A stretch of 64,000 bases of DNA from Nannocystis bainbridge (GTDB lineage Bacteria > Myxococcota_A > Polyangia > Nannocystales > Nannocystaceae). The stretch's first letter is position 1; every line of letters starts with the position of its first letter. Location of the stretch: contig NZ_JAQNDL010000004.1 in assembly GCF_028368995.1 (NCBI RefSeq), forward strand, positions 608,001 through 672,000, given 5' to 3'. Under the pieces are notes generated by a model. The model worked only from the letters and a program-made list of their open reading frames with translations. It was not told where the DNA came from and searched no databases. Below, piece by piece: positions 1,828 to 64,000 of the stretch. The position numbers and the translations under genes are program-made.

Positions 1828-3105
1828 TCAGGGCGCGGCGGGGTTGAGCAGGATGGTGACGGCGCCGGCGTCGAAGGTGGCGACGGCGAGGTCGAGGGCG
1901 GGGTTCGGGTCGAGCTGGGCGGCGTGGACGCGGACGGCGCCGGAGGGCAGCGGGATGGCCTGGGCGGGCGCGAAGCCGCCGTCGCCGTGGCCGGACCACC
2001 ACAGCAAGATCGGGCTGAGGGCGTCGACGGCGACGATGTCGAGGTGGCCGTCGCCGTCGAGGTCGTCGAGGTCGAGGGCGTGCGGCTTGAAGGGCGGGTC
2101 GATGGCGACCGAGCTGGCGTGGCTGAAGCCGCCGGCGCCGTCACCTGTCGCAAGGGACAGGCGTGCGGGGAATTGCTCGGCGGCGAGGATGTCGAGGTGG
2201 CCGTCCTCGTCGAGGTCGCCGAGGGCGGCGCCCCACGGGCGCAGGTGGGCGACCTGGGCCACGGGCTCGACGAACTGGCCGTCGGGGCGGCCGAGCACGC
2301 GCAGGAAGCCGCGCGGGGCGTCGACCTCGAACAGGAGGGCGTCGGGGACGCCGTCGCCGTCGAGCTGGCCGACGAGGAGACCGCCGGGGGCGAAGTCGGC
2401 GACAGCGCCGAGCACGGTGGTGGTGGTGGTCCAGGCGGCGGCGTCGCTGCCCCGGTGGACAGTGAGGCCGAACTTGTGGGCGCCGCGGCTGAGGGCGACG
2501 ACGTCGTTGCGGCCGTCGGCGTCGAGGTCGGCGACGACGTGGTTGCGCGGCGTGGGCGGGCTGGTCAGCGTCTTGTAGGCGGCGAACGCTGCCACCTGCC
2601 AGCGGAAGATCCGGGCGGCGTCGTCCGGCTGGGCGACCATGACATCGACGCCGGCGTGGCCGTCGAGCTGGCCGATCGCCGGGTAGGCGCTGGCGCCCTG
2701 CAGGGTGGGCGCGATGTCGGTGACGAAGCTGCCGTCGCCGCGGCCGCGCGCGACCCAGCCGGAGATCAGGGCGTCGTCGTCGAGGCCCATGACGAGCAGG
2801 TCGGTGTGGCCGTCGCCGTCGAAGTCGGCGACCTCGAGCGAGTAGGGCTCGATCGCGGGGATGAGGTCGCCGCCGCCGCTCTCGTTCGGGTCGCCGCCGG
2901 TGGACGGATCGGTGGTGGTGGGCTCGGTGGGGGACGGATCGGCGGTGGTGAGGCCGCCGGTGACTTCGCCGCCGGGGCCGCCGCCGCTGACGCCTTCGGT
3001 CGCGCTGCCGTGGCTGTCGCCGTGGCTGTCGCCGTCGGTCTCGCCGAGGGGACGCTCGGTGCAGGCGACGAGCAGCGCCAGCGCGGACGCCAGGTGAGCC
3101 CTCAT
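1828..3105 (-). CDS. FG-GAP/VCBS repeat lipoprotein
   Basis: Lipobox MRAHLASALALLVAC, a T/G/D-rich linker, and repeated DxDGDGxxD motifs (ADFDGDGHTD, DLDADGRND, DLDEDGHLD, DLDGDGHLD). Confidence 0.85.
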   Translation of the reverse strand: MRAHLASALALLVACTERPLGETDGDSHGDSHGSATEGVSGGGPGGEVTGGLTTADPSPTEPTTTDPSTGGDPNESGGGDLIPAIEPYSLEVADFDGDGHTDLLVMGLDDDALISGWVARGRGDGSFVTDIAPTLQGASAYPAIGQLDGHAGVDVMVAQPDDAARIFRWQVAAFAAYKTLTSPPTPRNHVVADLDADGRNDVVALSRGAHKFGLTVHRGSDAAAWTTTTTVLGAVADFAPGGLLVGQLDGDGVPDALLFEVDAPRGFLRVLGRPDGQFVEPVAQVAHLRPWGAALGDLDEDGHLDILAAEQFPARLSLATGDGAGGFSHASSVAIDPPFKPHALDLDDLDGDGHLDIVAVDALSPILLWWSGHGDGGFAPAQAIPLPSGAVRVHAAQLDPNPALDLAVATFDAGAVTILLNPAAP

Positions 3106-3255
3106 GGGCCCACGCTGCCACGGGCACGCGGTCGCGGCAAGCGCTGGGCCCCGGGCCCGGGGGCGTGATCGCGCGGACGCCGCGGGCCGGGCTTGCGCGC
3201 GGCCGGGCGGCGGGTTAGCAGTGGGCGAGGCCGCCCGTCGGCTGCTCGATCGGAC

Positions 3256-4221
3256 ATGAACGAAACGCCAGGTAGAGAGGGCGCGGGGGGCGGCATCCTG
3301 GGGCACGTGGGCGGCACGCCGCTGGTGCCGCTGCGCCGCCTGGGGGCCGGGCTGGCGGCGCCGGTGCTGGTGAAGTGCGAGCACCTGAACCCGGGCGGCA
3401 GCGTGAAGGACCGCATCGCGGTGGCGATCGCGGACGACGCGGAGGCGCGCGGGCGGCTGCGACCGGGGATGACGATCGTCGAGGCGACGGCGGGCAACAC
3501 GGGGGTGGGGCTGGCGTTGGTGGCGGCGGCCCGCGGGTACCGGCTGGTGTGCGTGCTGCCGGAGAAGATGTCGGCCGACAAGCGGGCGGCCCTGGCGACG
3601 CTGGGGGCAGAGGTCATCGTGACGCCGAACGCGGCGCCGTCACACCCGGACAACTTCCGCCGGGTGGCCGAACGGCTGGCGCGCGAGCGCGGGTGGTTCC
3701 TCGCCGATCAGTTCAACAACCCGGCCAACGTCGAGGTCCACGCGCGCACGACGGCGGCGGAGATCCTGGCGCAGACGGGCGGGGTCGTGGGGGCGTTCGT
3801 GGCCGGGGCGGGCACGGGCGGGACGATCACGGGGGTGGGCCGGGTGCTCAAACGGGCATGTCCGAAAGTGCAGGTGGTGCTTGCGGACCCGATCGGCTCG
3901 GGGCTGGCGCAGTGGGTGGAGACGGGCGCGATCGGGCCCGACGGGGCGTACGCGGTCGAGGGCATCGGCGCGAGCGAGCCGCCAGGGAACCTCGATCGGG
4001 CGGTGATCGACGCGGCCGAGCGGGTGAGCGACGCGGAGAGCTTCGCCACGGCGCGGCGGCTGATCGCGGAGGAGGGGCTGCTGGTCGGCGGGTCGGCGGG
4101 CACGAACGTGGCTGCCGCCCTGCGCGTGGCGGCCCGCGGCGGGCTGGCAGGGCCGGTGGTGACGGTGCTGCCCGACGCGTGGGACCGCTACCGCAGCAAG
4201 CCGTGGCTGCAGGGCGGGTGA
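3256..4221 (+). CDS. PLP-dependent cysteine synthase / cystathionine beta-synthase family protein
   Basis: KCEHLNPGGSVKDR (PLP lysine), EATAGNTG, GAGTGGT and EEGLLVGGSAG motifs. Confidence 0.92.
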   Translation: MNETPGREGAGGGILGHVGGTPLVPLRRLGAGLAAPVLVKCEHLNPGGSVKDRIAVAIADDAEARGRLRPGMTIVEATAGNTGVGLALVAAARGYRLVCVLPEKMSADKRAALATLGAEVIVTPNAAPSHPDNFRRVAERLARERGWFLADQFNNPANVEVHARTTAAEILAQTGGVVGAFVAGAGTGGTITGVGRVLKRACPKVQVVLADPIGSGLAQWVETGAIGPDGAYAVEGIGASEPPGNLDRAVIDAAERVSDAESFATARRLIAEEGLLVGGSAGTNVAAALRVAARGGLAGPVVTVLPDAWDRYRSKPWLQGG

Positions 4222-6422: not shown

Positions 6423-6495
6423 TGTCCTCGAGGACAGGTAGTGTCGCGTGCGGGGAGCCTCACCCGCGGGCCAGGCTCGCATGTGCTCGAGGCCA
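6423..6495. repeat. 14-bp palindromic units between convergent genes
   Basis: Perfect palindrome TGTCCTCGAGGACA at 6423-6436; TGTGCTCGAGGCCA at 6482-6495. Confidence 0.7.
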
Positions 6496-12695: not shown

Positions 12696-12930
12696 TGTCC
12701 CGGAAGACATGTCGCCGCGGACGGGCGTGAGCGAATGTCCCGGAGGCGCGGCGTCGTCGGGTGGGAGCGGCTGGCCGAGAGAGTCTGTCCCGGAGGACAT
12801 GTAGAATCGGGCAGGTCTTATCGTTGTCCTGGAGGACATGTCGCCCGGGGCGACATGGAATGTCCCGGAGGGCATGTCGCGGGGGACATGCCTTGAAGAA
12901 CATGTCCTCGGAGGCATGCTCCGAGGGGCA
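12696..12930. repeat. Large cluster (about 12 units) of the 14-bp palindromic element
   Basis: Units at 12696, 12710, 12736, 12786, 12800 and 12825, a 17-bp variant at 12839, then five in register at 12861, 12875, 12889, 12903 and 12917, ending 3 bp from the stop at 12934. Confidence 0.88.
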
Positions 12931-12933: not shown

Positions 12934-14832
12934 TCAGCGCTCGGCGAGCACGACCACGCGGTCGCCGGCGGCGAGGCGGATCCGGGCCGACTTGCGCGGG
13001 TTGAGGGCGACGCCGTAGGCCTGCTCGGGGTCGTGGGCGCGGGCGGCGAGGCGGTAGCCGAGGGCGATCTCGCCGCGGCGGGCGGCGGCCTCGACGACGG
13101 CGTAGAAGTCGATGTCGGCGCCGGGCTGGACGTAGTCGCGGGCCGGCTTGAGGTAGATCTCGTGGCCCTCGGGCGACAGCAGGTCGTCGAGCACGGCGGC
13201 CATGCGCCGGTTCTCGCTGACCTGCGAGACGACCAGGGAGACGAGGGTGTTGCTGATGATGAAGTCGTCGGCCTCGGTGACGGCCGCGAGGTCGCGGTTC
13301 TGGCCGTCGAGCATCTCGCTGGTGATCGGGACCGTCTTGCCCTGGCGGCGCAGGATGTCGCGCAGGTGCAGGAGGGTGATCATGGTCCGCGAGTCGGTCA
13401 TCTCCTGGGTGCGGCCCTCGGTCTCGGCGAGCACGAGGATGTTGTCGAAGCCGCCGACGTCGAGGCCGTCGAGGACGGCGCGGTCGGTGACGTCGCCGAC
13501 GCGCACGGTGACGGCGGTGTGCTGCAGGGCGTCGCCGCCGAGCCGGCTCTCGAGGTGGCGGGCCTCGCCGACGACGAGCACGGTCGAGCCGGGGGCGACG
13601 TAGGCGTCGAGCTCGCGCAGGACCAGCGGCAAGAGCTGGCTCTCGCCGAGCACGAGGGTCTTCTCGGGGCGCTGGTCGGCGTGCGGGTGCAGCGGGGCGA
13701 GGTCGGCGTCGGCGACCGCGGTCGGCCGGCCGTTGGCGATCACGGTGTCGTCGTCGCGGCTGATGGCGATGACCTGATCGCCGGCCTCGAACCGGCGGTC
13801 GAACGGCGGCGGCATCAGCCGCTCGCCCGCGGCGGTGTAGACGCCGACGAGGGCGCTGTCCTCGTAGGCGAACAGGCCCTCGCGGAAGGTCTTGCCGACC
13901 AGCAGCGGCTGGCTCTGGATGTAGAGCTCGTCGCCGCTGAACGACAGCAGCTCGGTGTAGACGACGGACAGGCCCGACTGGCGGCCGGTCTGCACCAGCA
14001 CGCGGCTGACGAGCGGAGGGGTGAGGATGAGGCCGGCGGCGTCGCCGACGACCATGCGCGCGACCGAGAGGGTCTTGTCGCTCTTGATCTCGGCGACCAC
14101 GTGCGGCGGCTTGCCGGCCTTGTCGCCGGCCTTGGCGACGGCGAGCAAGGTCTTGAGGACGACGGTGTCGGCCTCGGGCCCGTCGGGCGACATGACGATG
14201 ACGGAGCGCGCCTCGCCGAGGTTGACGAGGTCGAGGTCGCGGCGCACGAGCGGGCTGCCGGTGCGGGTGACGACGCGCATCGAGAGGTCGCCGAGCACGC
14301 TCCGGACCTCGTCGTCCATGGCGACCTTGTCGTGGTCGGCGAGGATGACGACGGAGGCGCCGGGGCGGTTGGCGTTGGCCTCGGCGAGCTCGGTGAGGAG
14401 GGCGTGGATCTTGCCGGTCCAGCCGAGGATGACGGTGTGGTCGCGCTCGATGACGACGCTCCGACCCTTGCGCAGGCGGTCGAGGATCTGGGCGAAGCCG
14501 CCGGAGAGGACGCCGATCAGGGCGGAGAACACGAAGATGCCGCCGAACGAGACGGCGAGCATGACGAACAGGAAGCTCCACGAGCCGACGTCGCCGCCGA
14601 CGGCCCCGGGGTCGATGGCGTGCATCAGCCCGAGCCAGACGAGCCGCCCGAACGAGACCGGCTCGCCGTCGTGACCCTGGGGGCTCAAACCGGTGAGGGT
14701 GAGCAGGGTCGAGGTGACGAGGATCAGGACGAGGGTGACGATCGCCAGCATGGCGATCTGCGAGCCGACCCCGCGCGCCATGGCGTTGTCGAAGCGATAG
14801 CGCAGCCTCTGCCTCAAGGTCGCGGATGGCAC
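12934..14832 (-). CDS. CASTOR/POLLUX (DMI1)-like ion channel with RCK/TrkA-type domains
   Basis: RLRYRFDN N-terminus, TM helices around a pore-like segment (LMHAIDPGAVGGD), RKGRSVVIERDHTVILGW, RQSGLSVVYTELLSFSGDELY and EGHEIYLKP. GTG start inferred. Confidence 0.85.
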   Translation of the reverse strand: MPSATLRQRLRYRFDNAMARGVGSQIAMLAIVTLVLILVTSTLLTLTGLSPQGHDGEPVSFGRLVWLGLMHAIDPGAVGGDVGSWSFLFVMLAVSFGGIFVFSALIGVLSGGFAQILDRLRKGRSVVIERDHTVILGWTGKIHALLTELAEANANRPGASVVILADHDKVAMDDEVRSVLGDLSMRVVTRTGSPLVRRDLDLVNLGEARSVIVMSPDGPEADTVVLKTLLAVAKAGDKAGKPPHVVAEIKSDKTLSVARMVVGDAAGLILTPPLVSRVLVQTGRQSGLSVVYTELLSFSGDELYIQSQPLLVGKTFREGLFAYEDSALVGVYTAAGERLMPPPFDRRFEAGDQVIAISRDDDTVIANGRPTAVADADLAPLHPHADQRPEKTLVLGESQLLPLVLRELDAYVAPGSTVLVVGEARHLESRLGGDALQHTAVTVRVGDVTDRAVLDGLDVGGFDNILVLAETEGRTQEMTDSRTMITLLHLRDILRRQGKTVPITSEMLDGQNRDLAAVTEADDFIISNTLVSLVVSQVSENRRMAAVLDDLLSPEGHEIYLKPARDYVQPGADIDFYAVVEAAARRGEIALGYRLAARAHDPEQAYGVALNPRKSARIRLAAGDRVVVLAER

Positions 14833-16277: not shown

Positions 16278-16347
16278 TGTTCAATGGGGCATGTTACATT
16301 GGACATGTCCATTGGAGCATGTTCGATAGAACATGTCCTTTGGGGAA
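16278..16347. repeat. AT-rich array of five 14-bp units between convergent genes
   Basis: TGTTCAATGGGGCA/TGTTACATTGGACA/TGTCCATTGGAGCA/TGTTCGATAGAACA/TGTCCTTTGGGGAA at an exact 14-bp period. Confidence 0.85.
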
Positions 16348-16396: not shown

Positions 16397-17821
16397 TCAT
16401 GCGCCCGCGGTGAGGGGCGGGCCGAGGCCGTAGGTGGCGGGGTCGAGGGCGTAGCAGCCGGCGAGGATCGGGCCGCCGCGGGCCAGGCTGTCGCGGCTGG
16501 CGCGGGCGTGGGCGGCGAAGCGGCCGAGGGCCTCGAGGTCGTCGGTGGCGGCGAGGTCGGTGTGCTCGGCGACGAGCTGGAGGAGGAGCGGGAGGCAGTG
16601 CGCGCGGCCCCACCAGGCGGCGTTGAGCTCGGTGTGATCGCGGTCGAGGCTGAGGTCGACGAGGTTGGCGGAGCCGAGAGTGGCCCACGCGCCGTCGACG
16701 ATGCACAGCTTGGCGTGGGTGTAGATCTCGCGGTGGCCGTCGGCGTCGCTGCGGGCGAGCGCGGCGAGGGTGAAGCCGGGGCGCTGCGCGAGGGCGTTGA
16801 GCTGGGCGAAGGTCGGGCCGTAGCGGTGCTCGTGGGTGCGACCGTCGCGGGCGAGCGCGGCGACCTCGGCGGCGGCGCGGCCGATGGCGGCCATGGGCTC
16901 GCCCGGGACGACCATGACGACGCGGACGCCGCGACGCAGCGCGGCGTCGAGGGCGAGGAGGACGGCGTGCTGGCCGGGGTGCTGGTTCTCGATGTAGATG
17001 GTGCGCCGCGCGGCGGCGATGGCGGCGAGGTAGTGGGCGAGGATGGTGGCCTCGCCGGCGTCGCTTGCGAAATCGGGGGCGCCGACGATCGGGGTCGGGC
17101 CGCGGTAACCGTCAGGGGCGAGGGTGCGCGCGAGCTGGACCCGTACGTCGCCGCAGGCGGGCGGGAGGCGCCCGGGGTAGGCGAGCGGGCCGGCGCGCAG
17201 GTCGTCCGGCCACGGCGGGGCGTCCGGGTCCTGGCGAGCGAGGTTCCACCGCTGGACGAAGTTGTGCTCGGCGTCGGCGACGACGGGGCCCTGCAGCTCG
17301 AGGAAGGCGTCGTGCTTGTGGAGGCCGTGGTGATGGCCAGGGCGGGCGAGGGTGGAGTCGCTGAGGATCATGCCGCCGACGAAGGCGAGGGCGTCAGGCT
17401 GGCCGGCGTCGACGAGGAAGGCCTTCTGGTGGTGGCAGTGGGCGGGCTCGGCGGAGCTGTCCCAACGGGCAGCCCAGCCGGCGCGGCGGGCAGCGAGGAG
17501 CTGGCGCTCGGCGGGGCCGCCGAGGAAGACGTGACGGGTGCTCGAGAACCGCGGGTTGCGCCAGAACAGGACCCGCACGTCGAGGCCGCGGGCGTGGCAG
17601 CGATCGAGCAGGTCCCACCAGGCGAGGCCGTCAGGCAAGCGGAAATCGGGCTGGATGAAGGAGACGATGACCCACAGGCGGGTGCGGGCGGCGGCGACGG
17701 CGGCGGCGAGGCGCTCGAAGAACGGGAGGCCGTCGATCCACGGGACGACGCGGTTGCCGTCCCGCACGGGGTACGGGCCGTGATCGTCGGCGATGGCGAG
17801 CAGGCCGTCGTCCTCGTGCAC
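16397..17821 (-). CDS. Phospholipase D / cardiolipin synthase-like protein
   Basis: Two HKD motifs (HHQKAFLVD and HAKLCIVD...GSANL) and IYIENQ. GTG start inferred; the ORF extension upstream is translated repeat sequence. Confidence 0.88.
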   Translation of the reverse strand: MHEDDGLLAIADDHGPYPVRDGNRVVPWIDGLPFFERLAAAVAAARTRLWVIVSFIQPDFRLPDGLAWWDLLDRCHARGLDVRVLFWRNPRFSSTRHVFLGGPAERQLLAARRAGWAARWDSSAEPAHCHHQKAFLVDAGQPDALAFVGGMILSDSTLARPGHHHGLHKHDAFLELQGPVVADAEHNFVQRWNLARQDPDAPPWPDDLRAGPLAYPGRLPPACGDVRVQLARTLAPDGYRGPTPIVGAPDFASDAGEATILAHYLAAIAAARRTIYIENQHPGQHAVLLALDAALRRGVRVVMVVPGEPMAAIGRAAAEVAALARDGRTHEHRYGPTFAQLNALAQRPGFTLAALARSDADGHREIYTHAKLCIVDGAWATLGSANLVDLSLDRDHTELNAAWWGRAHCLPLLLQLVAEHTDLAATDDLEALGRFAAHARASRDSLARGGPILAGCYALDPATYGLGPPLTAGA

Positions 17822-17875: not shown

Positions 17876-18012
17876 GGGCGCGCCGGAGATCGTAACATGT
17901 CGCGAGGGACATGTCCTCGGGGACATGCGATCAGGGGCGCGCCGGAGATCGGTACATGTCGCGAGGGACATGTCGCGAGGGACATGTCCTCGGGGTCATG
18001 CGCGCAGGGGCG
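17876..18012. repeat. Duplicated block containing arrays of the 14-bp element
   Basis: GGGCGCGCCGGAGATCG..ACATGTCGCGAGGGACATGTC occurs twice, 59 bp apart. Units at 17898, 17912, 17926 and at 17957, 17971, 17985, 17999. Confidence 0.85.
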
Positions 18013-18018: not shown

Positions 18019-18804
18019 TCAGGGGGTGCTGACCTCGACGTCGAGGCAGAAGTGGGCCGAGCGCGAGTCGTACCAGTCGCGCAGGTTGGTCAGCGGGGTG
18101 TCGCAGTGGTCGCCGGGATCGTCGATGGCGACCAGGCCGTCGCCGGGGGCGTCGCCCATGTGATCGGCGTGGAGGACGAGGGTCGAGGTCGAGCCGCCGC
18201 CGGTGATCCGCAGGCAGAAGTGCTGGGTGTCCAAAAGGACAGGTGGGTCGAGCTCGAAGTCGCGGTAGTCCATGCCGCCGTCGATGGTGCCGAGCTCGCG
18301 GGTGTCGAGCACGGCGAGCACGGGGGCGTGGTTGCCGGGGTCGTAGGGGAGGACGTCGAGGACGGCCGACGGCTCGCCGACGGCGAAGCGGACCTCGAAG
18401 CCTAACCGGGTGAGCTGCAGCGGCGGCGGGGCGGGGGCGGTGAAGCACTCGACGGCCTCGATCTTGGCCGAGACGGGGTCGCCGCCGCTCATGCAGAAGG
18501 GGCCGTCGATGCAGCGCGCGGGATCGTAGGGGCGCAGGGTGGTGGGCTCGAGCGGACCGGTGGTGGGCTCGGCGGTGGTGCTCGAGCTGGTGGTCGTCGA
18601 GGTGGTGGAAGAGACGGCGGCGGTGGTGGTGGAGTCGTCGCTGGTCGCCGCGGGGCCGGTGGTCGGCAGGCCGGTGGTGGTGGTGCCGCCGGTGGTGGTG
18701 GTCGTCGCGGCGCCGCCCTCGGTGGTCGCGCCGTCGTAGCTCGGGTTCGGGCGCAGGCACCCGCCGAGGACGAGGACGAACAGGTGGGCGAACCGAGGCC
18801 TCAC
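18019..18804 (-). CDS. Hypothetical lipoprotein with Thr-rich linker
   Basis: Lipobox LFVLVLGGC followed by LRPNPSYD, a Thr/Ser tract and a Cys-containing globular domain. Confidence 0.75.
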   Translation of the reverse strand: MRPRFAHLFVLVLGGCLRPNPSYDGATTEGGAATTTTTGGTTTTGLPTTGPAATSDDSTTTAAVSSTTSTTTSSSTTAEPTTGPLEPTTLRPYDPARCIDGPFCMSGGDPVSAKIEAVECFTAPAPPPLQLTRLGFEVRFAVGEPSAVLDVLPYDPGNHAPVLAVLDTRELGTIDGGMDYRDFELDPPVLLDTQHFCLRITGGGSTSTLVLHADHMGDAPGDGLVAIDDPGDHCDTPLTNLRDWYDSRSAHFCLDVEVSTP

Positions 18805-20473: not shown

Positions 20474-21262
20474 TCAGCCGGGCGGGCCGTTGTCGGGATC
20501 TGGCCCCGGGGACAGGTCGACGATGGTGGCGCCCCATCCGCCGCCGCGGTGGCCGCCGAGGCGGTAGGCGACGACGCGCGGGTGACGATCGAGGATCGCG
20601 TGCACGGTCCGTCGCAGGGCGCCGATGCCCTTGCCGTGGACGATGCGGACCTCGGTGATGCCGCGCGCGCGGCAGACTTCGAGGTACTCGAGCACGAGGC
20701 GCTTGACGTCCTTGGGGCTGAAGTTGTGGAGGTCGAGCTCGCCGTCAACGGGCAGCTCGGCGGCGCGGTCGGAGCCGGCGAGGGCGCCGAAGAAGCCGGC
20801 GCGCCCGGCCCACGGAGCCCACGGGAGCGCGGTGACGGGAGCGGGCTGATAGGCGGCGGGCCGCGGGAGGGCGCAGCGATGGACGGTGCGGGCGGCCCGG
20901 GCGAACGGGTTCCACGGGCGCTGGCCCTGGGCGGGGCCGGGCTGCCAGCGCTCGCCGACGCGGAGCTCGAGGGTGAAGCGGCCGGGGCGGCCGGGCCAGC
21001 GTTCGGCGACGATCCGCAGGTCGCCGAACAGGGCGGCGCCGATCAGGTCGAGGGCGAGGGCGGCCTGATCGTCGCTGTCGTCGTCGTCGGCGAGCGCGAA
21101 CGAAGCTGTCCATCCGGACAGGTCGACGCGCAGGCGATCGCCGTCGCGGTGGACGCCGAGCTCGAGGTCGCCGAGGCGGACGACGCCGGGGGGCGAGGGC
21201 GCGAGGCCGCAGGCGGCGAGCATGGCGTCGAGTGCGTGCGCGAAGGCCTCGCCGGGGGTCAT
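20474..21262 (-). CDS. Smr domain protein with an uncharacterised N-terminal domain
   Basis: The C-terminal ELDLH...VRIVHGKGIGALR...GGWGATIVDL is an Smr signature. The start MTPGEAF is inferred because the longer ORF overlaps real genes. Confidence 0.85.
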   Translation of the reverse strand: MTPGEAFAHALDAMLAACGLAPSPPGVVRLGDLELGVHRDGDRLRVDLSGWTASFALADDDDSDDQAALALDLIGAALFGDLRIVAERWPGRPGRFTLELRVGERWQPGPAQGQRPWNPFARAARTVHRCALPRPAAYQPAPVTALPWAPWAGRAGFFGALAGSDRAAELPVDGELDLHNFSPKDVKRLVLEYLEVCRARGITEVRIVHGKGIGALRRTVHAILDRHPRVVAYRLGGHRGGGWGATIVDLSPGPDPDNGPPG

Positions 21263-21334
21263 GGCCACGAGAGTGTAGGCGCGGTCGGCTGCGCGAGGCC
21301 AGGCGCGGCGGCGCGAGCGTGCTAGGAACGCGAC

Positions 21335-23819: not shown

Positions 23820-23889
23820 TGTCCGTGAGGACATGTGCGAAGGGACCTGTGCGTCGGGACAGGGCCGATCGCGCATGTCCTCGCGGACA
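23820..23889. repeat. Array of five 14-bp units between convergent genes
   Basis: TGTCCGTGAGGACA/TGTGCGAAGGGACC/TGTGCGTCGGGACA/GGGCCGATCGCGCA/TGTCCTCGCGGACA. Confidence 0.85.
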
Positions 23890-31799: not shown

Positions 31800-31861
31800 G
31801 GACATGTCCTCGAGGGGCATGCTCGAAGGGGCATGTCCTCGCGGGCATGTCCTCGCGGGCA
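31791..31861. repeat. Array of five 14/15-bp units filling a convergent intergenic gap
   Basis: TTGCCTTAGGGACA (includes the stop)/TGTCCTCGAGGGGCA/TGCTCGAAGGGGCA/TGTCCTCGCGGGCA/TGTCCTCGCGGGCA. Confidence 0.85.
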
Positions 31862-45290: not shown

Positions 45291-46520
45291 TCAGTGCGGC
45301 CAGATCTTCGCGGGCACGCAGACGTCGCGCTCGCCCTCACCGCGACGGCATTGCAGGCCCGGCTCGCAGGCGCAGTCGCGGCAACAGGTCTCGGTGGTTT
45401 CGTCCGGGTCGCAGCGGCCGTCGCCGCAGCGTGGATCCGGCGGAGCGACCGGGGTCTCGGTGCGCTGCCACAGGGTCAAGCAGCGGCCCTCGGCGTCGCA
45501 GCGCGAGCAGGAGGACGGGCACGGCGGAGGGCGTGCGGCCGGAGGTTTGCCTGCGGCCGTGAGGGGCGCGGCGACGTCGCTCGGACTGGCCACGGCGACT
45601 TCGGTGGGTCCGGTGACGGGGCGTTCGCTCGGGGTCGCGGCTTCGGCCGGAGTGCCGCAGTCGTCCTCGCAGCGGCCGACCTCGCCGTTCTCGCAGCGGC
45701 CGTTGCCGCACCACACCTGGCGGCAGCGCGGGTCACCGTCGTGGAGCTCGTCGCGGAAGGTGTCGAGCCACGCCTCGAGCTCCTTGAGCTCCGCGGGGCT
45801 GGGCACGCCGATCCGGGCCCAGCGGACGCGCCGGTTGCAGTCGAGCGCGAGGGTGACGGGCAGGGTGCCCTGGTAGAGGCGGCGCGAGTCGTCACGCAGA
45901 GCGGCGACGAAGCTGTCGGCGAGCGAGCGATCGGCCAGCTGGATGGCGCTGGAGGGCATGAGCGGGCCCCAGGTGCGGATGGCGTCCTCGGGGGCGGTGG
46001 GGTCGAGGACCTGGATCGGGAGGAAACGGACGGCGTCGCCCCAGCTGTCACCACGCTCGGCGAACAGCTGGCGCAGATCGGGGAGGACCTCCTTGCAGGC
46101 GGTGCACCAAGGGGCCCACAGGCTGAGGACGTGCACGGCCCGCGGCGACAGCACGTCGGCGGCGCCGAACCGCACGGTGCCGGCAGGAGCGCCGTGGCGG
46201 ACCCGCTCGAGCCGCAGACGCATCAACGGGGCGACGTCGACGCCGGCGGCCACGTAGGCGCCCGAACCGAGAGCGGCGCTCGGCGGGGGCGGGGCGGGCT
46301 CGATCTCGCGGAGAGGCTCGGAGGAGGTGGTGACGCGAGGCTTGCACGCGGCGGCTCGCTCGCGCAGCTCGGCCAGCGCCTCGGTCTGGGCGGCGAGGCG
46401 CCAGGTCAGCACCAGGGTGAGGCCGGACAGCAGCGCGACGGAGGCCAGGAGCACGAAGGCGGCCCCGATCCACGCGCGCGGGGCCTCCGGGTCGGGGGTC
46501 GGCAGCGGGGTGGTCTTCAC
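45291..46520 (-). CDS. Membrane-anchored TlpA/ResA-like thiol-disulfide oxidoreductase with Cys-rich C-terminal repeats
   Basis: N-terminal TM, LWAPWCTACKEVLP (WCxxC), TLPVT cis-Pro loop, and CGNGRC/CGDGRC repeats. Confidence 0.8.
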   Translation of the reverse strand: MKTTPLPTPDPEAPRAWIGAAFVLLASVALLSGLTLVLTWRLAAQTEALAELRERAAACKPRVTTSSEPLREIEPAPPPPSAALGSGAYVAAGVDVAPLMRLRLERVRHGAPAGTVRFGAADVLSPRAVHVLSLWAPWCTACKEVLPDLRQLFAERGDSWGDAVRFLPIQVLDPTAPEDAIRTWGPLMPSSAIQLADRSLADSFVAALRDDSRRLYQGTLPVTLALDCNRRVRWARIGVPSPAELKELEAWLDTFRDELHDGDPRCRQVWCGNGRCENGEVGRCEDDCGTPAEAATPSERPVTGPTEVAVASPSDVAAPLTAAGKPPAARPPPCPSSCSRCDAEGRCLTLWQRTETPVAPPDPRCGDGRCDPDETTETCCRDCACEPGLQCRRGEGERDVCVPAKIWPH

Positions 46521-46533
46521 GCCGGGCCTCGGT

Positions 46534-46692
46534 TCACTCCGGCGCCTCGCAGCAGGTGCAGGCGTCTAGCGTTTGGGACATGTCTCTTCGCACCTGTACG
46601 AAGCGCCAGATGCCGATCGCGGCCGCGGCGACCGCGACCGTCGCGGCCAGGCTGGCGGCGAGCAGCAGGCGGCGGGCGGTGGCGGGCTTCAT
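46534..46692 (-). CDS. 52-aa single-TM microprotein with C-terminal CxCC
   Basis: ATGA overlap with the upstream stop; MKPATARRLLLAASLAATVAVAAAAIGIWRFVQVRRDMSQTLDACTCCEAPE; the next gene starts 13 bp after its stop. Confidence 0.6.
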   Translation of the reverse strand: MKPATARRLLLAASLAATVAVAAAAIGIWRFVQVRRDMSQTLDACTCCEAPE

Positions 46693-47708
46693 CGGCCGGG
46701 GTCCTTCGCGCCGGTGCACGGGACCGGGATGACCAGGACCACGCGGTTGACGTCGCGCTCGAGCGTGCGGCGGGCGGGCACGGGTTCGCCGGCGCGCACG
46801 GCCGCGAAGGCGGCGGCGAGGCGCTCGCTGTCGGCGCGGGTGGCGGCGATCGGGGGCTGGGCGCCGGCGTAGTTGCGCACGAACGCCTCGAGCGCGACGG
46901 GCCGCTCGCTCGGGGCGCCCCAACCGATGAGCATCGGGCCCTGGCCGCGCTCGCTCGGCTTGTCGCGGCCGAGGGCCTGGTCGATGAGGCGCTCGACGGC
47001 GTTGATCCGCCGCAGCGCCAGCGCGTGGTCGTCGGTCGGGTTGCCGTCGGGGCTCGATCGGCCGATGACGAACAGCATCTTGGCGTCGCGCAGGGCCTTG
47101 GCGTGGCGCGCGAGCTCGCCGACGAGGTGGGCGCGGGCGGCAGGATCGGGCCAGGGCTGGCGCGCGCGCGGCTCGCCCGAGGGGAAGTAGACGGTGAGGC
47201 GATCGGGGAAGGCGGCGAGCAGGGCGTTCATCTCCTCGTCGTCGGCGAGCAGGGCCCGCCACTCGTCGGCGCTGCAGCCCCCGCCGCCCTCGACCTGGTC
47301 CTGCACGCTGGTGCGCCGCTGCAGGCACGCCTGCGTCAGCCGCGAGACGGCCGCCTCGACCGCGGGCGAGCCGCAGGTCGGGGCCGGGGCCTCGGGTTCG
47401 CCGCGCGGGCGGCAGCGCAGGTCGGCGCCGCACTGCAGGCCGACGTCGCACGGGCAGTCGCGGCACTGCTCGCCGCGCTGCGCGACCGGGGGCTCCTCGT
47501 GCGGGGTGCACTCGCCGTGCACGCACCAGTGGCCGTCAGGGCACTGCTCCTCGTCGGGCCGGCGCGGGTCGCAGCGCTGCTCGCTGGCGCCTTCGACGGC
47601 GGTGGACGGGATGGAGACCACCGCCCAGGCCACGAATACGACCATCGCCCAGACGCCGGTCGTCAGGGCGATCAAGGTCACGGTGAGCCGATCGAGCGTC
47701 ATCGCCAT
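46689..47708 (-). CDS. Membrane-anchored Cys-rich protein with OmpA-like peptidoglycan-binding domain
   Basis: N-terminal TM, a Cys-rich segment, then VYFPSG...VIGRSSPDGN...ALALRRINAV...NRVV, resembling OmpA_C. Confidence 0.7.
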   Translation of the reverse strand: MAMTLDRLTVTLIALTTGVWAMVVFVAWAVVSIPSTAVEGASEQRCDPRRPDEEQCPDGHWCVHGECTPHEEPPVAQRGEQCRDCPCDVGLQCGADLRCRPRGEPEAPAPTCGSPAVEAAVSRLTQACLQRRTSVQDQVEGGGGCSADEWRALLADDEEMNALLAAFPDRLTVYFPSGEPRARQPWPDPAARAHLVGELARHAKALRDAKMLFVIGRSSPDGNPTDDHALALRRINAVERLIDQALGRDKPSERGQGPMLIGWGAPSERPVALEAFVRNYAGAQPPIAATRADSERLAAAFAAVRAGEPVPARRTLERDVNRVVLVIPVPCTGAKDPGR

Positions 47709-47798: not shown

Positions 47799-49064
47799 TC
47801 ACTCGGCGGCCGGGGCTTCGACCAGCTTGAGGATCTTGCCGGCGCTGGTGGCCGGCATGGCCTCGCCCAGGCGCAGCTCGCCGGCCTCGATCGGGACCAC
47901 GAAGGCCTGCGGCACGCCGACCCGGCCGCCGCGCGCCTTGACCCACGCGAGCAAGTAGCGCTGCTGGGCGGCGAGGGTGGCCGCGGCGTCCTCGCCGTCG
48001 ATGCAGGTGCGCAGGCGGCCGCCGGGGCCGAGCACGTCGGCGACGTCGCCGAGCGCCCGCTCGACCTTGTCGGTGGTGAAGCGCGGGGCCTCGGTGTCCT
48101 GCAGGTCGAACAGCGCGGCCAGGCCGTCGAGCCCGCGCCCGGGGGCCAGCCGCTCGACGCACAGGGCCGCCAGGGCGGCGAGGCAGGCGTTGTTGCTGCG
48201 CGCGTCGCCGTGGGTCTGCGGCTTGCCGTCGCCGTCGACGAACTCGTGCGACGGCAGGTAGCGCTCGTCGCAGACGGCGCGCGGGAACATGTAGACCCAC
48301 AGCTCGGCCCCGTGGGCGCGCAGCCGCGGCAGCGACTGCTGCAGGAAGTGGAGCTCGCGCCGGCACAGCGGGCAGGTCGGATCGACGAACAACATCACCG
48401 CGAGGCGCGGGTCGTCGACGGTGGCGGCGAGCGTGACCGGCGGCGGATCGGGCGGCGGCGGCGGGCAGGTCACCGAGCGCGCGGCGAGTTGATAGGCGAG
48501 GGCGAGGCCGCCGGTGGTCAGCGCCCACACCAGCGCGGCCCGCACGGCGCCGACCTTGGCATGTCCCTCGGGACAGGTCGGCGCGGCGCCGCGGACCAGC
48601 AGCGCGCCGACGAGGGCGACGGTGTAGGTGGCGTAGAGGCCGACGCACAGCGGGCACATGTGCGCGAAGCTCGTGAACGCGTGCACGCCGAGCGCCAGCG
48701 ACACCGCGAACCCGAACACGCCGAGGCCGAGCAGCCCGCGCGCGGCGACCTCGGCCAGCGGCCCGCGCCGGCGCAGCACCGCGACCGCTAGCCACATGGT
48801 CGTGAAGACATGTCCGATCGACCAGATGGCGAGCGGCAGCCCGAGCACCTGCGACCAGCCGCTGGCCAGCGCCTCGGCGCAGGCCGGGCCGTCGTCGCCG
48901 CCGGGGCAGCCGCTGGCGTCGCACAGGTGGTCGGCGCCGAACTTGAGCCGCACCAGCCAGGCGCTGACGAACAGGCCGGCGAGCCCGGAGGCGAGCGTCA
49001 ACCACGCGCCGGCGCGGACCCGCGGCGCGAGCTCGGACGGGGTGGCGATCGTCGGCTCCGTCAC
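47799..49064 (-). CDS. VKOR (vitamin K epoxide reductase) family protein fused to a DsbA-like thioredoxin domain
   Basis: GTGA overlap with the kinase stop; loop cysteines and C.EALASGWSQVLGLPLA; TM CPLC; then FVDPTCPLC and GVPQAFV. Confidence 0.85.
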   Translation of the reverse strand: MTEPTIATPSELAPRVRAGAWLTLASGLAGLFVSAWLVRLKFGADHLCDASGCPGGDDGPACAEALASGWSQVLGLPLAIWSIGHVFTTMWLAVAVLRRRGPLAEVAARGLLGLGVFGFAVSLALGVHAFTSFAHMCPLCVGLYATYTVALVGALLVRGAAPTCPEGHAKVGAVRAALVWALTTGGLALAYQLAARSVTCPPPPPDPPPVTLAATVDDPRLAVMLFVDPTCPLCRRELHFLQQSLPRLRAHGAELWVYMFPRAVCDERYLPSHEFVDGDGKPQTHGDARSNNACLAALAALCVERLAPGRGLDGLAALFDLQDTEAPRFTTDKVERALGDVADVLGPGGRLRTCIDGEDAAATLAAQQRYLLAWVKARGGRVGVPQAFVVPIEAGELRLGEAMPATSAGKILKLVEAPAAE

Positions 49065-50737: not shown

Positions 50738-50979
50738 GCCGCGAGGCTAGCCGCGGCGCAGGCCCCGGTAAAGTGGGCCGCGCGGCCGCGAGGGCACCCG
50801 GCGCCGACCGCGGGCACGGGCCCGGCCGGCCGCGCGGCGCCGACGGGGTGAGAGGACCGCGCAGAGCTGCGTGCCTCATCCGAGGCAGCCAGGCCCCGAC
50901 GGTCGCGCGCCTCCGCGCGACTTCCGCGGTGCCCGCGAGACGCGTGGGCGACCGCGGCTTCGGGGGTCGGTCGCGGACG

Positions 50980-51021
50980 TGGTCGATCGGACATGTCCGA
51001 AAGACCATGCGCGTCGAAGCC
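50980..51021. repeat. Two to three 14-bp units in a divergent intergenic region
   Basis: TGGTCGATCGGACA/TGTCCGAAAGACCA/TGCGCGTCGAAGCC. Confidence 0.65.
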
Positions 51022-51091
51022 CCTCGCGCCCCGGCGAATCGCGCCGTCTTCGACGGTGATGCTGCCCGCCGTCGGCTGATACACGCTGACG

Positions 51092-51322
51092 ATGGGCGAG
51101 CAACGAGGCGAGGACGAGGGCAGCGCGGGTCATGACGGCCAACCTACGCCTGCACACGGGTCCGGCCAGTTCGACTTCTTCGCCGCCTGCGGCTACTTCT
51201 GGCCCGAGAACGACAGCGGCTGCGATACGCCGGGGCTGGTGGCCGGGGCCGAGGCGGCGACCGGGCTGAGCCTCACCACGTTCGCGGGCTGCTACGAGGC
51301 CAGCAGCTTCTCGCTCGATTGA
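51092..51322 (+). CDS. Small hypothetical protein or gene remnant
   Basis: The 3' half has strong GC3 codon bias and natural composition (FDFFAACGYFWPENDSGC); no recognisable family. Confidence 0.35.
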   Translation: MGEQRGEDEGSAGHDGQPTPAHGSGQFDFFAACGYFWPENDSGCDTPGLVAGAEAATGLSLTTFAGCYEASSFSLD

Positions 51323-51485
51323 TGAGCCGGCGGTGCTTGCGCGTGATGAATGCGAGCACCGCCGAGATCGATGAATTCGCGGCCTCCACCGCCGCTCGCG
51401 CGACGCGTCGCGGCGGCGCCCGGCACAGCCCGGTTGCGGCGCCGGCGTAATGGCGCATGCCTGGCCGCGAACCGGACGACGCATC

Positions 51486-53167: not shown

Positions 53168-53209
53168 TGCGCGAAAGGACATGTCCGAACGGGCATGTCG
53201 TGAAGGACA
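53168..53209. repeat. Three 14-bp units between convergent genes
   Basis: TGCGCGAAAGGACA/TGTCCGAACGGGCA/TGTCGTGAAGGACA, 11 bp after the uvsE stop. Confidence 0.85.
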
Positions 53210-56478: not shown

Positions 56479-56528
56479 TGTCCCCGGGGACATGTCGACA
56501 TGGCGGGAAGTGCATGTCCCGAGGGACA
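56479..56528. repeat. Cluster of 14-bp units
   Basis: TGTCCCCGGGGACA (perfect)/TGTCGACA (8-bp short unit)/TGGCGGGAAGTGCA/TGTCCCGAGGGACA. Confidence 0.8.
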
Positions 56529-58935: not shown

Positions 58936-58980
58936 TGTCTCGATGGACATGTCCCTTCGGACATTGATAGGACATGCCCG
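58936..58980. repeat. Cluster of 14-bp units between convergent genes
   Basis: TGTCTCGATGGACA/TGTCCCTTCGGACA, then TTGATAGGACA/TGCCCG. Confidence 0.8.
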
Positions 58981-61801: not shown

Positions 61802-61957
61802 GCTTAAAGTCTCCCTCGTTCGGTCTTATCACAGCCCGCCGCAGGCCCCCGGGCGCGCCGGCGTGCGCTGACCCGGAGGCGTGACACCGCTGTGATTGCC
61901 GTGCGCTTCCGCGCGAGCCGGGCCGCGAGCCGCGAGCCGTGAATTGCGAGTCGGCGA

Positions 61958-63034
61958 TCAGGGGGCAGGCCGGCGCTGCCAGGGGGTCGTGACCGCGGCC
62001 AGCTCGGCGAACGAGATCCCCCAGGCTTTTGTGGCGTCGAGGGCGGCCGCGCGGCGCTGCAGGTCCTCGGGGGCCAGGGGCTCGTCCTGCGCCAATGCGA
62101 GGACGATCCATTCGTTGCTGCCGGGGCGGCGGACCACGTGGACCTGGGGGAACACCTCGGCGATGGCGTTCACGTGGACGTCGTAGCCGGTCAAATGGTG
62201 GATGTTGAAGGCCGCGGCGCCGCCGGGGCTGAGGCGCTGCTTGACGCGGCGGAGAAACCCGAGGCCGCGCAATTCCTCGGGCACGCCGGCGTTGTCGGTG
62301 CCAGGGGCGCCGGGGTCGAGGAAGGCGTCGAGCCAGATGATGTCGTAGGTGGGGCCCTCGCCGGCGATGAAGCGCACGGCGTCGTCGGTGAAGATGCCGA
62401 GGCGCGGGCCCGGGACCACGCCGAACCACTCGGCGGCCAGGCGCACGACCTCCGGGTCGATCTCGACGGCGTCGATGTGGGCCGCGGGCAGGCGCGAGTG
62501 GAACCAGCGGACCAGGGTGCCGCCGCCGAGGCCGACGACGAGCAGGCGCCGCGGAGCGTCGACGACCATGAAGGGCGCGGCCATGGCCTCGGCGTAGGCG
62601 TGGGCGGGCACGTCGGGGTCGGTGAGGTCGATGATGGTCTGCACCCACTCGTCGCCGCGCTTGCGCACGAACCCGAGGGTGCGCTTGGTGCCCTGCTGTT
62701 GCACGCGGATCTTCGAGAACGGCGAGGTCGCCTCGGCGAGCAGCTTGCGCCCGCGGACGCGCTCGGGCGCGACCGGGGCCGGCAAGGCGACGGCGGCGGG
62801 GGCGGCCACGGTCGGGGGGCTGGCGACCGGCGCCTCCTCGGCGGCGGGGCGATTGCATGCACCTGTCCCCGGGGACAGGGAGAGGACGGCGAGCAGGGAC
62901 GCGAGCGGGCCGCGGTGGACCGGCCGAGATGGACTTTGGTTGTCTGTCCCTCGGGACAGGTCGTGCCGATCACGAACGACGCGCGCGCCGGGGCGACGCG
63001 CGGGCGGAGAGGAGGGGTCGTCGAGGTCGCGCAC
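61958..63034 (-). CDS. Spermidine synthase-like SAM-dependent methyltransferase, probably exported
   Basis: LVVGLGGG, DAVEIDPEV, DAVRFI and YDIIWLDAF. The true start is uncertain and probably downstream of 63034. Confidence 0.8.
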   Translation of the reverse strand: MRDLDDPSSPPARRPGARVVRDRHDLSRGTDNQSPSRPVHRGPLASLLAVLSLSPGTGACNRPAAEEAPVASPPTVAAPAAVALPAPVAPERVRGRKLLAEATSPFSKIRVQQQGTKRTLGFVRKRGDEWVQTIIDLTDPDVPAHAYAEAMAAPFMVVDAPRRLLVVGLGGGTLVRWFHSRLPAAHIDAVEIDPEVVRLAAEWFGVVPGPRLGIFTDDAVRFIAGEGPTYDIIWLDAFLDPGAPGTDNAGVPEELRGLGFLRRVKQRLSPGGAAAFNIHHLTGYDVHVNAIAEVFPQVHVVRRPGSNEWIVLALAQDEPLAPEDLQRRAAALDATKAWGISFAELAAVTTPWQRRPAP

Positions 63035-63073
63035 GCGCGGATGGTAGCATCCGCGCGGGCCGGAGCGTCCGCT

Positions 63074-64000
63074 TCAGACGCGCAGCTCGGCGCTCGGGCG
63101 CGGCACGGCGAGGTCGTCGAGCAAGGCGCGGGCGCACGGGAGCACGACCGAGCGCATGCACTGGGCGGCCAGGGCGATGCGCTCGGCGGCGGGGAGGCGG
63201 CCGTGGCGGCGCAGGAGGGCCGGTTCGAGGCGGTCGGGCGGAGGCGCGGCGATCTGGACGGTGAGGGCCTCGGCGACGGCGCGGCGCAGGCCGGGGCCGC
63301 CGCGCGACAGGGCCCACTGGACGGTGCGCCAGGCCAGCGCGGCGTGGCGCCCCTCGTCGGCGGCGATCCGGCGCAGGGTGGCGGCGAGGGCCGGATCGTC
63401 ACATGTCCTCGCGGCCAGGTCGAGCTCGGCCGCGGCGAGGGTCTCGCCGACGCAGCCCTCGCGCACGACGGCGGCGACGAGGGCTGCCAGATCGCCGGGA
63501 CCTTCGAGGGCGCCGGCCACGGCCAGCGGCCCGGGGCCGAGCGGGGCGCCGGCGTAAGCACCGGCGATGGCGAAGGCGAGGCGAGCGTGCAGGACCTCGT
63601 CGAGCTGGGCGGCGCAGGCCTCGTGGACCAGGGCGGGCGGGGCGGCGTGGGCGAGCAGCTGCAGGCTGAAGCGCGCGAACGAGGCGACCGAGGCGTGTTC
63701 GGCGAGGGCGTCGGCGGTCCACAGCGCCGCGAGCTCGGCGCGAGCGGCCGCGTCGAGGCCGGCGACGAAGGCGGGGGCGGGGCCGCCGGCGTCGGCGTGC
63801 CAGTCGCGGCGATCGATCGCCGCGGCGGTGCGAGCTGTCCCTTCGACCAGGAAGGGGCGGCCGTCGGTGCAGTTCCAGCTGTACTCGATCACGTGGCAGC
63901 ACTGGCCCTCGATGGTGAACGGGCCGCACGCGAGCTTGAAGCCGAAGTCGGGGCACACTTCGGGGAGCGAGCCGAGGCAGTCGGGCGCGCACGCGTCACA
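63074..64000 (-). CDS. Ferritin-like domain protein with Cys-rich N-terminus (5' end outside the window)
   Basis: GRPF, EHASVASFARF, DEVLHA, EGCVGET and IAADEGRHA diiron-type ExxH motifs; the frame stays open to the window edge. Confidence 0.82.
   Translation of the reverse strand, partial: CDACAPDCLGSLPEVCPDFGFKLACGPFTIEGQCCHVIEYSWNCTDGRPFLVEGTARTAAAIDRRDWHADAGGPAPAFVAGLDAAARAELAALWTADALAEHASVASFARFSLQLLAHAAPPALVHEACAAQLDEVLHARLAFAIAGAYAGAPLGPGPLAVAGALEGPGDLAALVAAVVREGCVGETLAAAELDLAARTCDDPALAATLRRIAADEGRHAALAWRTVQWALSRGGPGLRRAVAEALTVQIAAPPPDRLEPALLRRHGRLPAAERIALAAQCMRSVVLPCARALLDDLAVPRPSAELRV

Follow-up and report, generated by a model that had tools for sequence, protein, structure and literature searches.

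A hyper-abundant spaced palindrome in coding and intergenic DNA of Nannocystis

The genome of Nannocystis bainbridge (G000; 11.05 Mb in five contigs, 71.5% G+C) carries a 14-bp spaced palindrome, TGTCC-N4-GGACA (TGTCCNNNNGGACA), in about 2000 copies, of which roughly a third lie inside genes at the expense of the preferred codons. The DNA under study, called the window throughout, is the whole 64,000-nt stretch at C4:608001–672000 of this genome, and the palindrome is the common core found at the places where a first-pass annotation had described a 14-bp element embedded in coding sequences. The window contains 14 exact matches to the core, against 0.01 expected from dinucleotide-preserving shuffles, and 41 matches with at most one mismatch, against 1.55 expected from such shuffles. 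Genome-wide, 1987 exact copies are present, compared with 3 of a reversed control pattern (the same letters backwards) and with 12.8 predicted from independent 5-mers. We favor, with somewhat better than even confidence, the reading that the palindrome is a double-stranded DNA recognition site for a genus-specific symmetric factor and is kept by selection or by an uptake-like drive.

The wider consensus, M-TGTCY-N4-RGACA-K, takes in one flanking base on each side and so spans 16 bp: in about 90–95% of single copies, A or C stands at position −1 and G or T at position +1. The main tolerated variants are C5 to T and G10 to A, and this C-to-T transition at positions 5/10 is the commonest variant found (407 and 461 copies, about 150-fold over expectation). 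Almost no variation is seen at positions 2/13 and 4/11, any base can stand at mid-stem position 3/12, and the spacer is free yet symmetric, with Y in its first position and R in its fourth. All complete 200-kb bins of the five contigs hold copies (10–64 each), fewer being seen only in the short remainders at contig ends, and no copy-free region was found along the contigs. Because the motif is its own reverse complement, an orientation of the Chi/KOPS type is impossible for it, and the skew with replication seen in such words is absent.

Enrichment is restricted to the genus. All 11 Nannocystis genomes examined are enriched (114–2090 copies, with fewer in fragmented assemblies), 12 of 14 genomes from sister genera hold 7 copies or fewer, and 16 genomes of other families hold at most 8, the control-pattern counts being 0–10. 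The other two sister-genus genomes, G011 and G013, hold 87 and 161 copies, intermediate numbers that could mark an origin or a decay of the system. No other enriched 5-Nx-5 palindrome was found in 200–400-kb samples of G011, G013, and a further sister-genus genome, G019.

Copies inside genes

Genes were called with a codon-log-odds caller trained on long open reading frames (ORFs) with a high G+C content at third codon positions (GC3), which gave 7846 genes and a coding fraction of 80.8%. The caller is conservative, so some copies counted as intergenic may sit in missed genes, and its 5′ ends are approximate; Pfam families were matched in 8 of 12 and 18 of 35 window proteins scanned. By these calls, 702 exact copies lie wholly within coding sequence (CDS), 1271 lie between genes, and 14 fall on gene edges, so that 35% are coding. 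For 662 of the 702, the gene's own frame scores best on both sides of the copy, and coding copies are spread evenly along gene length.

The number of coding copies was compared with that left after synonymous codons were shuffled within each gene, a procedure that retains the protein and the gene's own codon use. Ten such shuffles gave 21.4 ± 3.1 exact copies, with a maximum of 27, and shuffling of codon order gave 4.6 ± 1.4. At one mismatch, 1659 copies were present in CDS against 391 ± 21 in the synonymous shuffle; at two mismatches there was no excess genome-wide (3882 against 4478 in the null). Amino acid sequence and codon usage alone, the explanation that the first-pass annotation had itself set against its proposal, thus do not account for the frequency of intragenic copies.

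Coding copies occupy all three frames, in numbers ordered by cost (394, 248, and 60 of the 702), as the proposal of upkeep at the DNA level would have it. Proteome positions whose peptide could encode the motif were also counted, with expectations taken from genome-wide codon usage (about 10.5 copies in total). The motif is present at 394 of 1100 compatible positions in frame 2 (nnT GTC CNN NNG GAC Ann; 9.9 expected), at 241 of 545 in frame 1 (nTG TCC NNN NGG ACA; 0.3 expected), and at 60 of 140 in frame 0 (TGT CCN NNN GGA CAN; 0.3 expected). Compatible peptides therefore carry the motif in 36–44% of cases, where codon usage predicts under 1%. The rare-codon cost described earlier was borne out as well. 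Genome GC3 is 94.6%, and ACA, GGA, and TGT make up only 2.0% of Thr, 2.4% of Gly, and 9.2% of Cys codons; A/T-ending codons account for 22–59% of the codons that overlap the motif, against 5.4% overall.

Several features of the coding copies could be ascribed to composition or chance, with the motif as a by-product of peptides such as V-P-x-D-S and C-P-x-G-Q. The peptides HVPEDS, PVPEDS, and CPEGQ do recur, nine genes carry 4–8 copies in low-complexity repeats whose periods are multiples of three, and the difference between the two shuffles (21.4 against 4.6) indicates that the amino acid sequence carries part of the signal. This explanation leaves 702 copies to be set against 21.4 with protein and per-gene codon use fixed, and it does not reach the 1271 copies outside genes, the use of all three frames, the count of 3 for the reversed control, or the conservation of rare A/T third positions described below (95% against 35%). 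It is refuted by the synonymous shuffle, the compatible-peptide counts, and the A/T third-position conservation, and we give it practically no weight.

Arrays of two, three, and four units were counted 346, 40, and 7 times in CDS, with no peak of three-unit (42-bp) in-frame insertions, so the three-unit runs singled out in the first-pass annotation have no special status there. One gene, at C3:585192–587019(−), holds seven exact copies on a 21-nt period encoding DISHVPA; intergenic arrays use a 14-nt period. Core and non-core genes of the congener G007 held 26 exact copies in 297 kb and 8 in 55 kb, respectively, a small sample in which "non-core" is poorly defined.

The origin of coding copies was followed in syntenic DNA of five congeners (80–89% nucleotide identity), and the congener G007 was compared with G000 over 376 kb of alignment. 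All 11 coding sites in the window with at most one mismatch are found at the same position in aligning congeners, without unit-sized insertions or deletions (indels). Small gaps in or near the motif do occur in some pairwise BLAST alignments (sites 18228, 20501, 21107, 36791, and 37368); none of the gaps in the MAFFT alignment, shown for three sites, falls within the motif. Between congeners the stems stay, and change is found in the flanks and spacers. Of 27 exact coding sites compared with G007, 19 are exact there as well, 7 have one mismatch, and 1 has two, with no motif indel in any of the 27; among 69 one-mismatch sites, 46 are unchanged, 7 perfected, and 15 worse, and a single site has a motif indel.

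Sequence alignment with a motif-poor genome points the same way. In 400 kb of the sister genus represented by G019 (4 copies in 9.6 Mb), 49 sites fell within tblastn high-scoring segment pairs (HSPs). A gap was present in the motif codons at 11 of these, mostly in weak alignments, and at only 1 of the 12 sites in HSPs of at least 45% identity. The motif has been assembled by synonymous and non-synonymous changes together, as in ATG TCC GAA GGG ACA against ATG TCC GAG GGC GCG in G019, or in CTG TCC GGA TGG ACA of an Smr gene against CTC GCG ACG TGG TCG in another genus. As judged from these alignments, coding copies arise by substitution and not by insertion, which answers a question that the first-pass annotation had put to orthologs. 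Amino acid identity to G019 is 28% at motif codons, compared with 41% elsewhere in the same HSPs.

Once present, the copies are conserved at synonymous positions. Between G000 and G007, third positions in the stems of exact sites are identical in 97.1% of cases (n = 102), compared with 81.9% in the 20-nt flanks (n = 354; Fisher p = 2.8e-5), and the values for one-mismatch sites are 96.1% and 81.9% (p = 1e-9). Spacer third positions are identical in 67–74% of cases (66.7% at exact sites, n = 30). The contrast is greatest for the rare codons: A/T third positions are identical at 97 of 102 motif positions (95.1%) and at 1941 of 5512 positions elsewhere (35.2%; p = 5e-37), while G/C third positions are identical in 98.0% and 86.9% of cases, respectively.

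Conservation of this kind would be mimicked by a repair bias, and a mutational drive without function, such as the very-short-patch repair coupled to a methyltransferase that has been proposed for HIP-type palindromes, might turn near-matches into matches across the genome. A link between HIP elements and methyltransferases is discussed in the part of PMC4390886 drawn on here. Such a drive would place copies regardless of gene boundaries, as is seen, and the commonest variant, C to T at 5/10, is the one that deamination of methylated C would give. Strong drive to consensus predicts something other than 46 of 69 one-mismatch sites unchanged, 7 perfected, and 15 worse; ten or more specified positions are protected and not one repairable base; and the skew of about 8-fold toward 3′ intergenic DNA would need selection on placement in any case. 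Vsr (PF03852) has no match in G000 and is matched in just 1 of the 11 Nannocystis genomes. A mutational or repair drive without function appears distinctly unlikely to us.

Gene 3′ ends, tandem arrays, and the form of the site

Most copies lie directly past the 3′ ends of genes, often as 14-bp tandem arrays. Exact copies occur at 1.72 per kb in convergent gaps, 0.66 in tandem gaps, 0.21 in divergent gaps, and 0.079 in CDS, and a copy with at most one mismatch is present in 56.5% of the 1307 convergent, 25% of the tandem, and 16% of the divergent gaps. Copies in tandem gaps lie a median of 76 nt past the upstream stop codon. Arrays of one to seven head-to-tail units on the 14-bp period were counted 2206, 667, 211, 58, 34, 11, and 3 times. 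They are not conserved between species, and among intergenic sites compared with G007, indels affect 3 of the 18 that are exact and 17 of the 47 with one mismatch. Of the four spacer positions, neighboring units agree at 1.32 on average, compared with 1.09 when pairs are shuffled (4.7 standard deviations), from which it follows that arrays grow by tandem duplication.

This behavior recalls mobile palindromes, such as repetitive extragenic palindromes (REPs), bacterial interspersed mosaic elements (BIMEs), or miniature inverted-repeat transposable elements, spread by a transposase and with coding copies as insertions or trapped intergenic arrays. The species-variable arrays at gene 3′ ends, the shared spacers, the frequent intergenic indels, and the 11 of 49 coding sites in gapped parts of the G019 alignments are all in its favor. 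The coding copies tell against it: a length of 14 bp does not divide by three, yet indels in coding copies relative to the congener number 0 of 27 and 1 of 69, the outgroup alignments show substitution, CDS lacks a three-unit peak, and 35% of exact copies are coding, unlike REPs. The Y1 transposase/RAYT family (PF01797) also has no match in G000, though 6 of 14 control genomes match. We regard spread by transposition as very unlikely.

Placement at gene ends would equally suit an element that acts as RNA only, that is, a terminating hairpin without a U-tract or a shield of the mRNA 3′ end, with coding copies as internal attenuators or by-products. Copies are found where such an element would be expected, close to the upstream stop and most often in convergent gaps, where a palindrome would serve both genes of the pair, and arrays reach folding energies of −17 to −28 kcal/mol (z −2.5 to −3.7). 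Single units have 5-bp stems, and as hairpins they are weak (−6.8 to −10.5 kcal/mol when folded with their flanks, z +0.09 to −1.8). No T-runs were seen by eye after units in the intergenic regions of the window, and no Rfam family reached its gathering score in the window. Among sequencing runs registered as RNA, none contains the part of the window that was looked for. Of the features of an intrinsic terminator, the downstream placement is thus present, and a G+C-rich hairpin with a U-tract and a constraint on pairing over sequence are not.

A hairpin selected for stability should punish mid-stem mismatches, favor compensated double changes, and tolerate G·U pairs on the transcribed strand only. 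The copies show a different pattern. Position 3/12, in the middle of the stem, is the most tolerant of all and accepts any base without compensation. The two halves vary independently: two TGTCC halves are found in 1987 copies, one TGTCT half in 868, and two TGTCT halves in 127 (about 95 under independent halves), so that single-arm variants far outnumber compensated ones. Covariation of the −1/+1 flanks is small (508 against 430 expected in intergenic copies, 272 against 281 in CDS). In co-directional gaps the sense strand shows no preference between U·G and C-A mirror variants (149 against 157; 325 against 281 with four pairs summed), and stable tetraloops have no preferred strand either (UUCG, 49 against 56; GNRA, 45 against 38). 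Neighboring spacers are not complementary, as long hairpins would have them (1.17 against 1.10). In the same gaps, C at position 12 is twice as common on the sense strand as its mirror G at position 3 (115 against 57), an asymmetry that wobble pairing does not explain.

Nor does a hairpin need strict stem identity over about 2000 copies and 11 genomes, or conservation of synonymous sites in 702 coding copies. An element confined to the RNA level is accordingly judged unlikely. The independent half-sites, the tolerant mid-stem, and the lack of RNA-strand asymmetry lead us to read the unit as a double-stranded DNA site for a symmetric factor; arrays may act as RNA hairpins in addition. The claim made at first pass, that the motif is upheld as DNA regardless of gene boundaries and is not a terminator only, is supported: its three suggested checks, on codon usage, orthologs, and reading frames, all turned out in its favor, and the conserved A/T third positions and the lack of an RNA-strand signal add to them.

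Sites in the 64-kb window

Twenty units at 12 loci of the window had been listed as intragenic in the first-pass annotation. The element and its excess within genes hold up; the assignment of one locus does not, and many of the listed units are degenerate. Three are exact (18228, 21107, and 48562) and four have one mismatch (2146, 20501, 36791, and 63404), and the remaining six with two and seven with three mismatches are not above chance singly. Eleven of the 12 loci lie in coding sequence, that at 43902–43943 in a weakly scoring gene. The twelfth, three degenerate units at 46567–46608 (3 mismatches each), is called intergenic because it lies downstream of gene 46689–47708(−) and no coding signal is present in any frame at 46500–46649. 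Four coding sites with at most one mismatch (2448, 17458, 37368, and 40062) were absent from the list. The degenerate units at 3845–3872, 28237, 43902–43943, and 48797–48824 are nonetheless held in place in aligning congeners.

The exact unit at 18228–18241, TGTCCAAAAGGACA, is in gene 18019–18804(−), which has no Pfam family. It occupies the same position in all five congeners and is exact in three; it is ungapped in the MAFFT alignment, and one pairwise BLAST alignment puts a 1-base gap in its 5′ flank. The exact unit at 21107–21120 is in the Smr-domain gene 20474–21268(−), in codons CTG TCC GGA TGG ACA (LSGWT), and a codon alignment shows LGPWS, LATWS, or IDGWT at this site in other genera, without indels. 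The same gene has a one-mismatch unit at 20501–20514, 27 nt ahead of its stop codon. The third exact unit, at 48562–48575, lies directly past the VKOR domain in the VKOR-domain gene 47799–49064(−) and is a one-mismatch unit in all four aligning congeners; two degenerate units in this gene, at 48797–48824 (3 and 2 mismatches), are conserved in four of four aligned congeners.

Among the one-mismatch units, that at 2146–2159 in the FG-GAP gene 1828–3105(−) is identical in both aligning congeners, and a second such unit is present in the gene at 2448–2461. The unit at 17458–17471 in the PLD-like gene 16397–17821(−) is identical in four of four aligning congeners, and that at 63404–63417 in gene 63074–64513(−) in two of two. 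The large gene 35741–40315(+) holds three in-frame tandem units at 36777–36818 (2, 1, and 2 mismatches, the central one at 36791) and further one-mismatch units at 37368 and 40062. The coding signal is in the same frame on both sides of the 36777–36818 stretch, whose stems are kept and whose spacers vary in four congeners; in one of the congeners, G003, the central unit is exact.

The more degenerate coding units include one at 28237–28250 (2 mismatches) in the sigma-54 activator gene 27614–29209(−), which in four of five congeners is the one-mismatch unit TGTCCTGAAGGTCA, and three at 43902–43943 (2, 3, and 3 mismatches) in gene 43728–44942(+), the weakly scoring gene, whose coding status is less certain; these are identical in one of two aligning congeners and differ by one base in the other. 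Two units at 3845–3872 (3 and 2 mismatches) are in the cysteine-synthase-like PALP gene 3307–4221(+), in codons AAA CGG GCA TGT CCG AAA. The closest loci to this gene are from Nannocystis (93–97% amino acid identity). GCA TGT CCG is kept in all four named Nannocystis loci, and the outgroups shown have mostly other residues or codons, without indels. In two metagenome-assembled genomes (Nannocystaceae/Nannocystis; L052 and L100), the gene has motif-like units in another register (TGT CTC AAG AGA CAT GTC CCT GGG GTC and TGT CTC AAG GGA CAG), so that this region of the cysteine synthase gene has gained the motif by more than one route.

Intergenic units are found both in convergent gaps and between genes of one strand. 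Convergent gaps hold an exact single unit at 6423–6436, an array at 23820–23889, two-unit arrays at 31834–31861 (starting at the stop codon of gene 30048–31799) and 58936–58963, and a three-unit array at 53168–53209 (RNA fold −24.2 kcal/mol, z −2.8). A five-unit degenerate array that is richer in A/T (TGTTC AATG GGGCA / TGTTA CATT GGACA and so on) lies at 16278–16347, also in a convergent gap; its unit TGTTC GATA GAACA is a compensated stem variant. Between two (−) genes lie arrays of two and three units with the 14-bp period at 17898–17998, two exact units 36 nt apart at 56479–56528, and two exact single units at 62864–62958. The arrays at 17898–17998 do not align in congeners, which have one degenerate unit there. 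A cluster of about eight units at 12696–12916 is downstream of gene 12934–14781(−).

Two stretches without a gene call, 1188–1827 and 50738–51485 (640 and 748 bp), each have motif units and may hold missed genes. At 40454–43590, two adjacent paralogous genes encode cysteine-rich DUF4215 repeats (one also DUF1554), with several diverged copies in congeners; the most frequent raw 12- and 14-mers of the window, GCGACGACGGCAAC among them, probably come from these paralogs.

Interpretation, known systems, and significance

On the reading that we favor, the unit would consist of two M-TGTCY half-sites, inverted around a free 4-bp spacer, and would be read by a symmetric, probably dimeric, sequence-specific factor peculiar to Nannocystis. 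Copies would be held or pushed at the DNA level to where they are least harmful. Most would settle just past gene 3′ ends, where tandem duplication would build labile 14-bp arrays, and about a third would form in genes through point changes, at residues under little conservation and in linkers of low complexity, in the cheapest frame. Coding copies, once formed, would then be conserved against codon bias. The patterns themselves are shown by the data: the surplus of copies, their rise by substitution, the conservation of synonymous positions, half-sites that vary independently, the location at gene 3′ ends, and the confinement to the genus. The protein that reads the site and the purpose of its binding are what we infer from them. 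As to use, we consider a genome-wide tag of "own DNA" most likely, akin to uptake sequences or HIP1 and with a part in uptake, recombination, or nucleoid binding, and the arrays at gene ends would probably act as two-way transcription stops as well.

Several observations weigh against this reading. The gene calls are self-made (80.8% coding), so some coding and intergenic labels will be wrong, and conservation by itself does not distinguish selection from a bias in repair or uptake. A terminator or a hairpin at mRNA ends would likewise be expected to give the 7.6-fold intergenic excess and the placement at 3′ ends, and the arrays do fold well as RNA. The compensatory double TGTCT..AGACA occurs somewhat more often than independence predicts (127 against about 95), and intergenic pairing of −1 with +1 is modestly in excess as well. 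ComEC (PF03772) and DprA (PF02481) have one match each in G000, and they match in 10 and 11 of 14 control genomes, too. Sites are not evenly spaced along the genome (coefficient of variation 1.15), and the coding sites show no tendency to occupy the gaps left by the intergenic ones (median 1763 against 1768 nt), so a structural role that depends on spacing finds no support.

Two bolder readings can be put beside it. In one, the binding protein would coat the gene-end arrays as a two-way roadblock terminator or insulator, a bacterial and genome-wide counterpart of protein-mediated termination of the mTERF/Reb1 type in a genome without U-tract terminators, and the roughly 700 coding copies would be deliberate pause or marking points of a single site each in disordered linkers; we hold this at low probability. 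In the other, which is about equally bold, the motif would be the first DNA uptake sequence with a palindromic form and also the first of any kind in myxobacteria. No description of the element was found in print under Nannocystis palindromes or inverted repeats or under myxobacterial uptake sequences, in a search with subscription journals outside its scope, and it is not mentioned in those parts of PMC5217627 and of the myxobacterial genomics review PMC8538405 that term look-ups reach. Two exact tandem units were not found on any one viral contig of IMG/VR, a negative that says little because G000 itself has just 16 such pairs.

By definition, REPs are found outside genes, and they are associated with a Y1 transposase. 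Like REPs and BIMEs, the Nannocystis motif consists of short palindromes that follow genes in arrays differing from one species to another; unlike them, it has 702 of its 1987 exact copies in CDS, and G000 gives no match to PF01797. The TRIT motif of Mycobacterium tuberculosis is an example of a palindrome conserved within one lineage and placed at gene ends, in another G+C-rich genome without classic U-tract terminators; unlike TRIT-type terminator hairpins, the motif described here has coding copies under synonymous constraint and no RNA-strand signal. Its geometry resembles that of the 5-N4-5 operators of dimeric helix-turn-helix regulators of the FNR/CRP type, with 14-bp inverted half-sites, a free spacer, and independent half-site variation, but its sites number thousands and not tens, and they lie at 3′ ends and avoid the divergent gaps that bear promoters.

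The DNA uptake sequence (DUS) of Neisseria and the uptake signal sequence (USS) of Pasteurellaceae are asymmetric words, whereas the Nannocystis motif is a spaced palindrome and forms 14-bp tandem arrays. It is otherwise like them: a short clade-specific motif that numbers thousands of copies, occurs in every frame of coding DNA with a preference for the cheapest, is situated at poorly conserved residues, is made by substitution, and is common at gene 3′ ends, where inverted DUS/USS copies can form terminators. In the portions of Findlay and Redfield (PMC2817400) used here, uptake sequences are described as favoring frames according to codon preference, as falling at poorly conserved residues, and as altering peptide frequencies, with 34.5–65% of copies within ORFs and 1,471 and 1,892 copies per genome. 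The ORF share in Nannocystis, 35%, is comparable to that range, and the density is lower, at about 0.18/kb against 0.8–0.9/kb (the latter from those counts and the usual genome sizes). HIP1, the highly iterated palindrome of cyanobacteria, is given in the parts consulted of Xu, Lawrence and Durand (PMC5861425) as over-represented by a factor of 15 to 300 and as conserved both inside ORFs and between them, with a function thought to be at the DNA or nucleoid level. Both HIP1 and the present motif are hyper-abundant palindromes in coding and non-coding DNA that are conserved between genomes. HIP1 (GCGATCGC) is a contiguous 8-mer, whereas the Nannocystis site is spaced as 5+4+5, has a different sequence, and shows a strong 3′-intergenic bias and tandem arrays.

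A palindrome kept in genes at the cost of rare codons points to a job of the DNA itself. To our knowledge, thousands of copies of a single short word persist against codon bias in few bacterial lineages, namely Neisseria, Pasteurellaceae, and cyanobacteria, and each earlier case raised a question on DNA uptake, repair, or chromosome structure. A genus of myxobacteria now joins them, with a word of another build: it is a spaced palindrome, and over half of convergent gene ends carry its 14-bp arrays. The motif could be used as a marker of Nannocystis DNA in metagenomes, and annotators should expect patches of rare codons and low-complexity repeats in this genus that are shaped by pressure at the DNA level and not by protein function. 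The 16-bp duplex is a concrete probe with which to fish for the factor, and the finding prompts tests of natural competence or of protein-mediated termination in Nannocystis.

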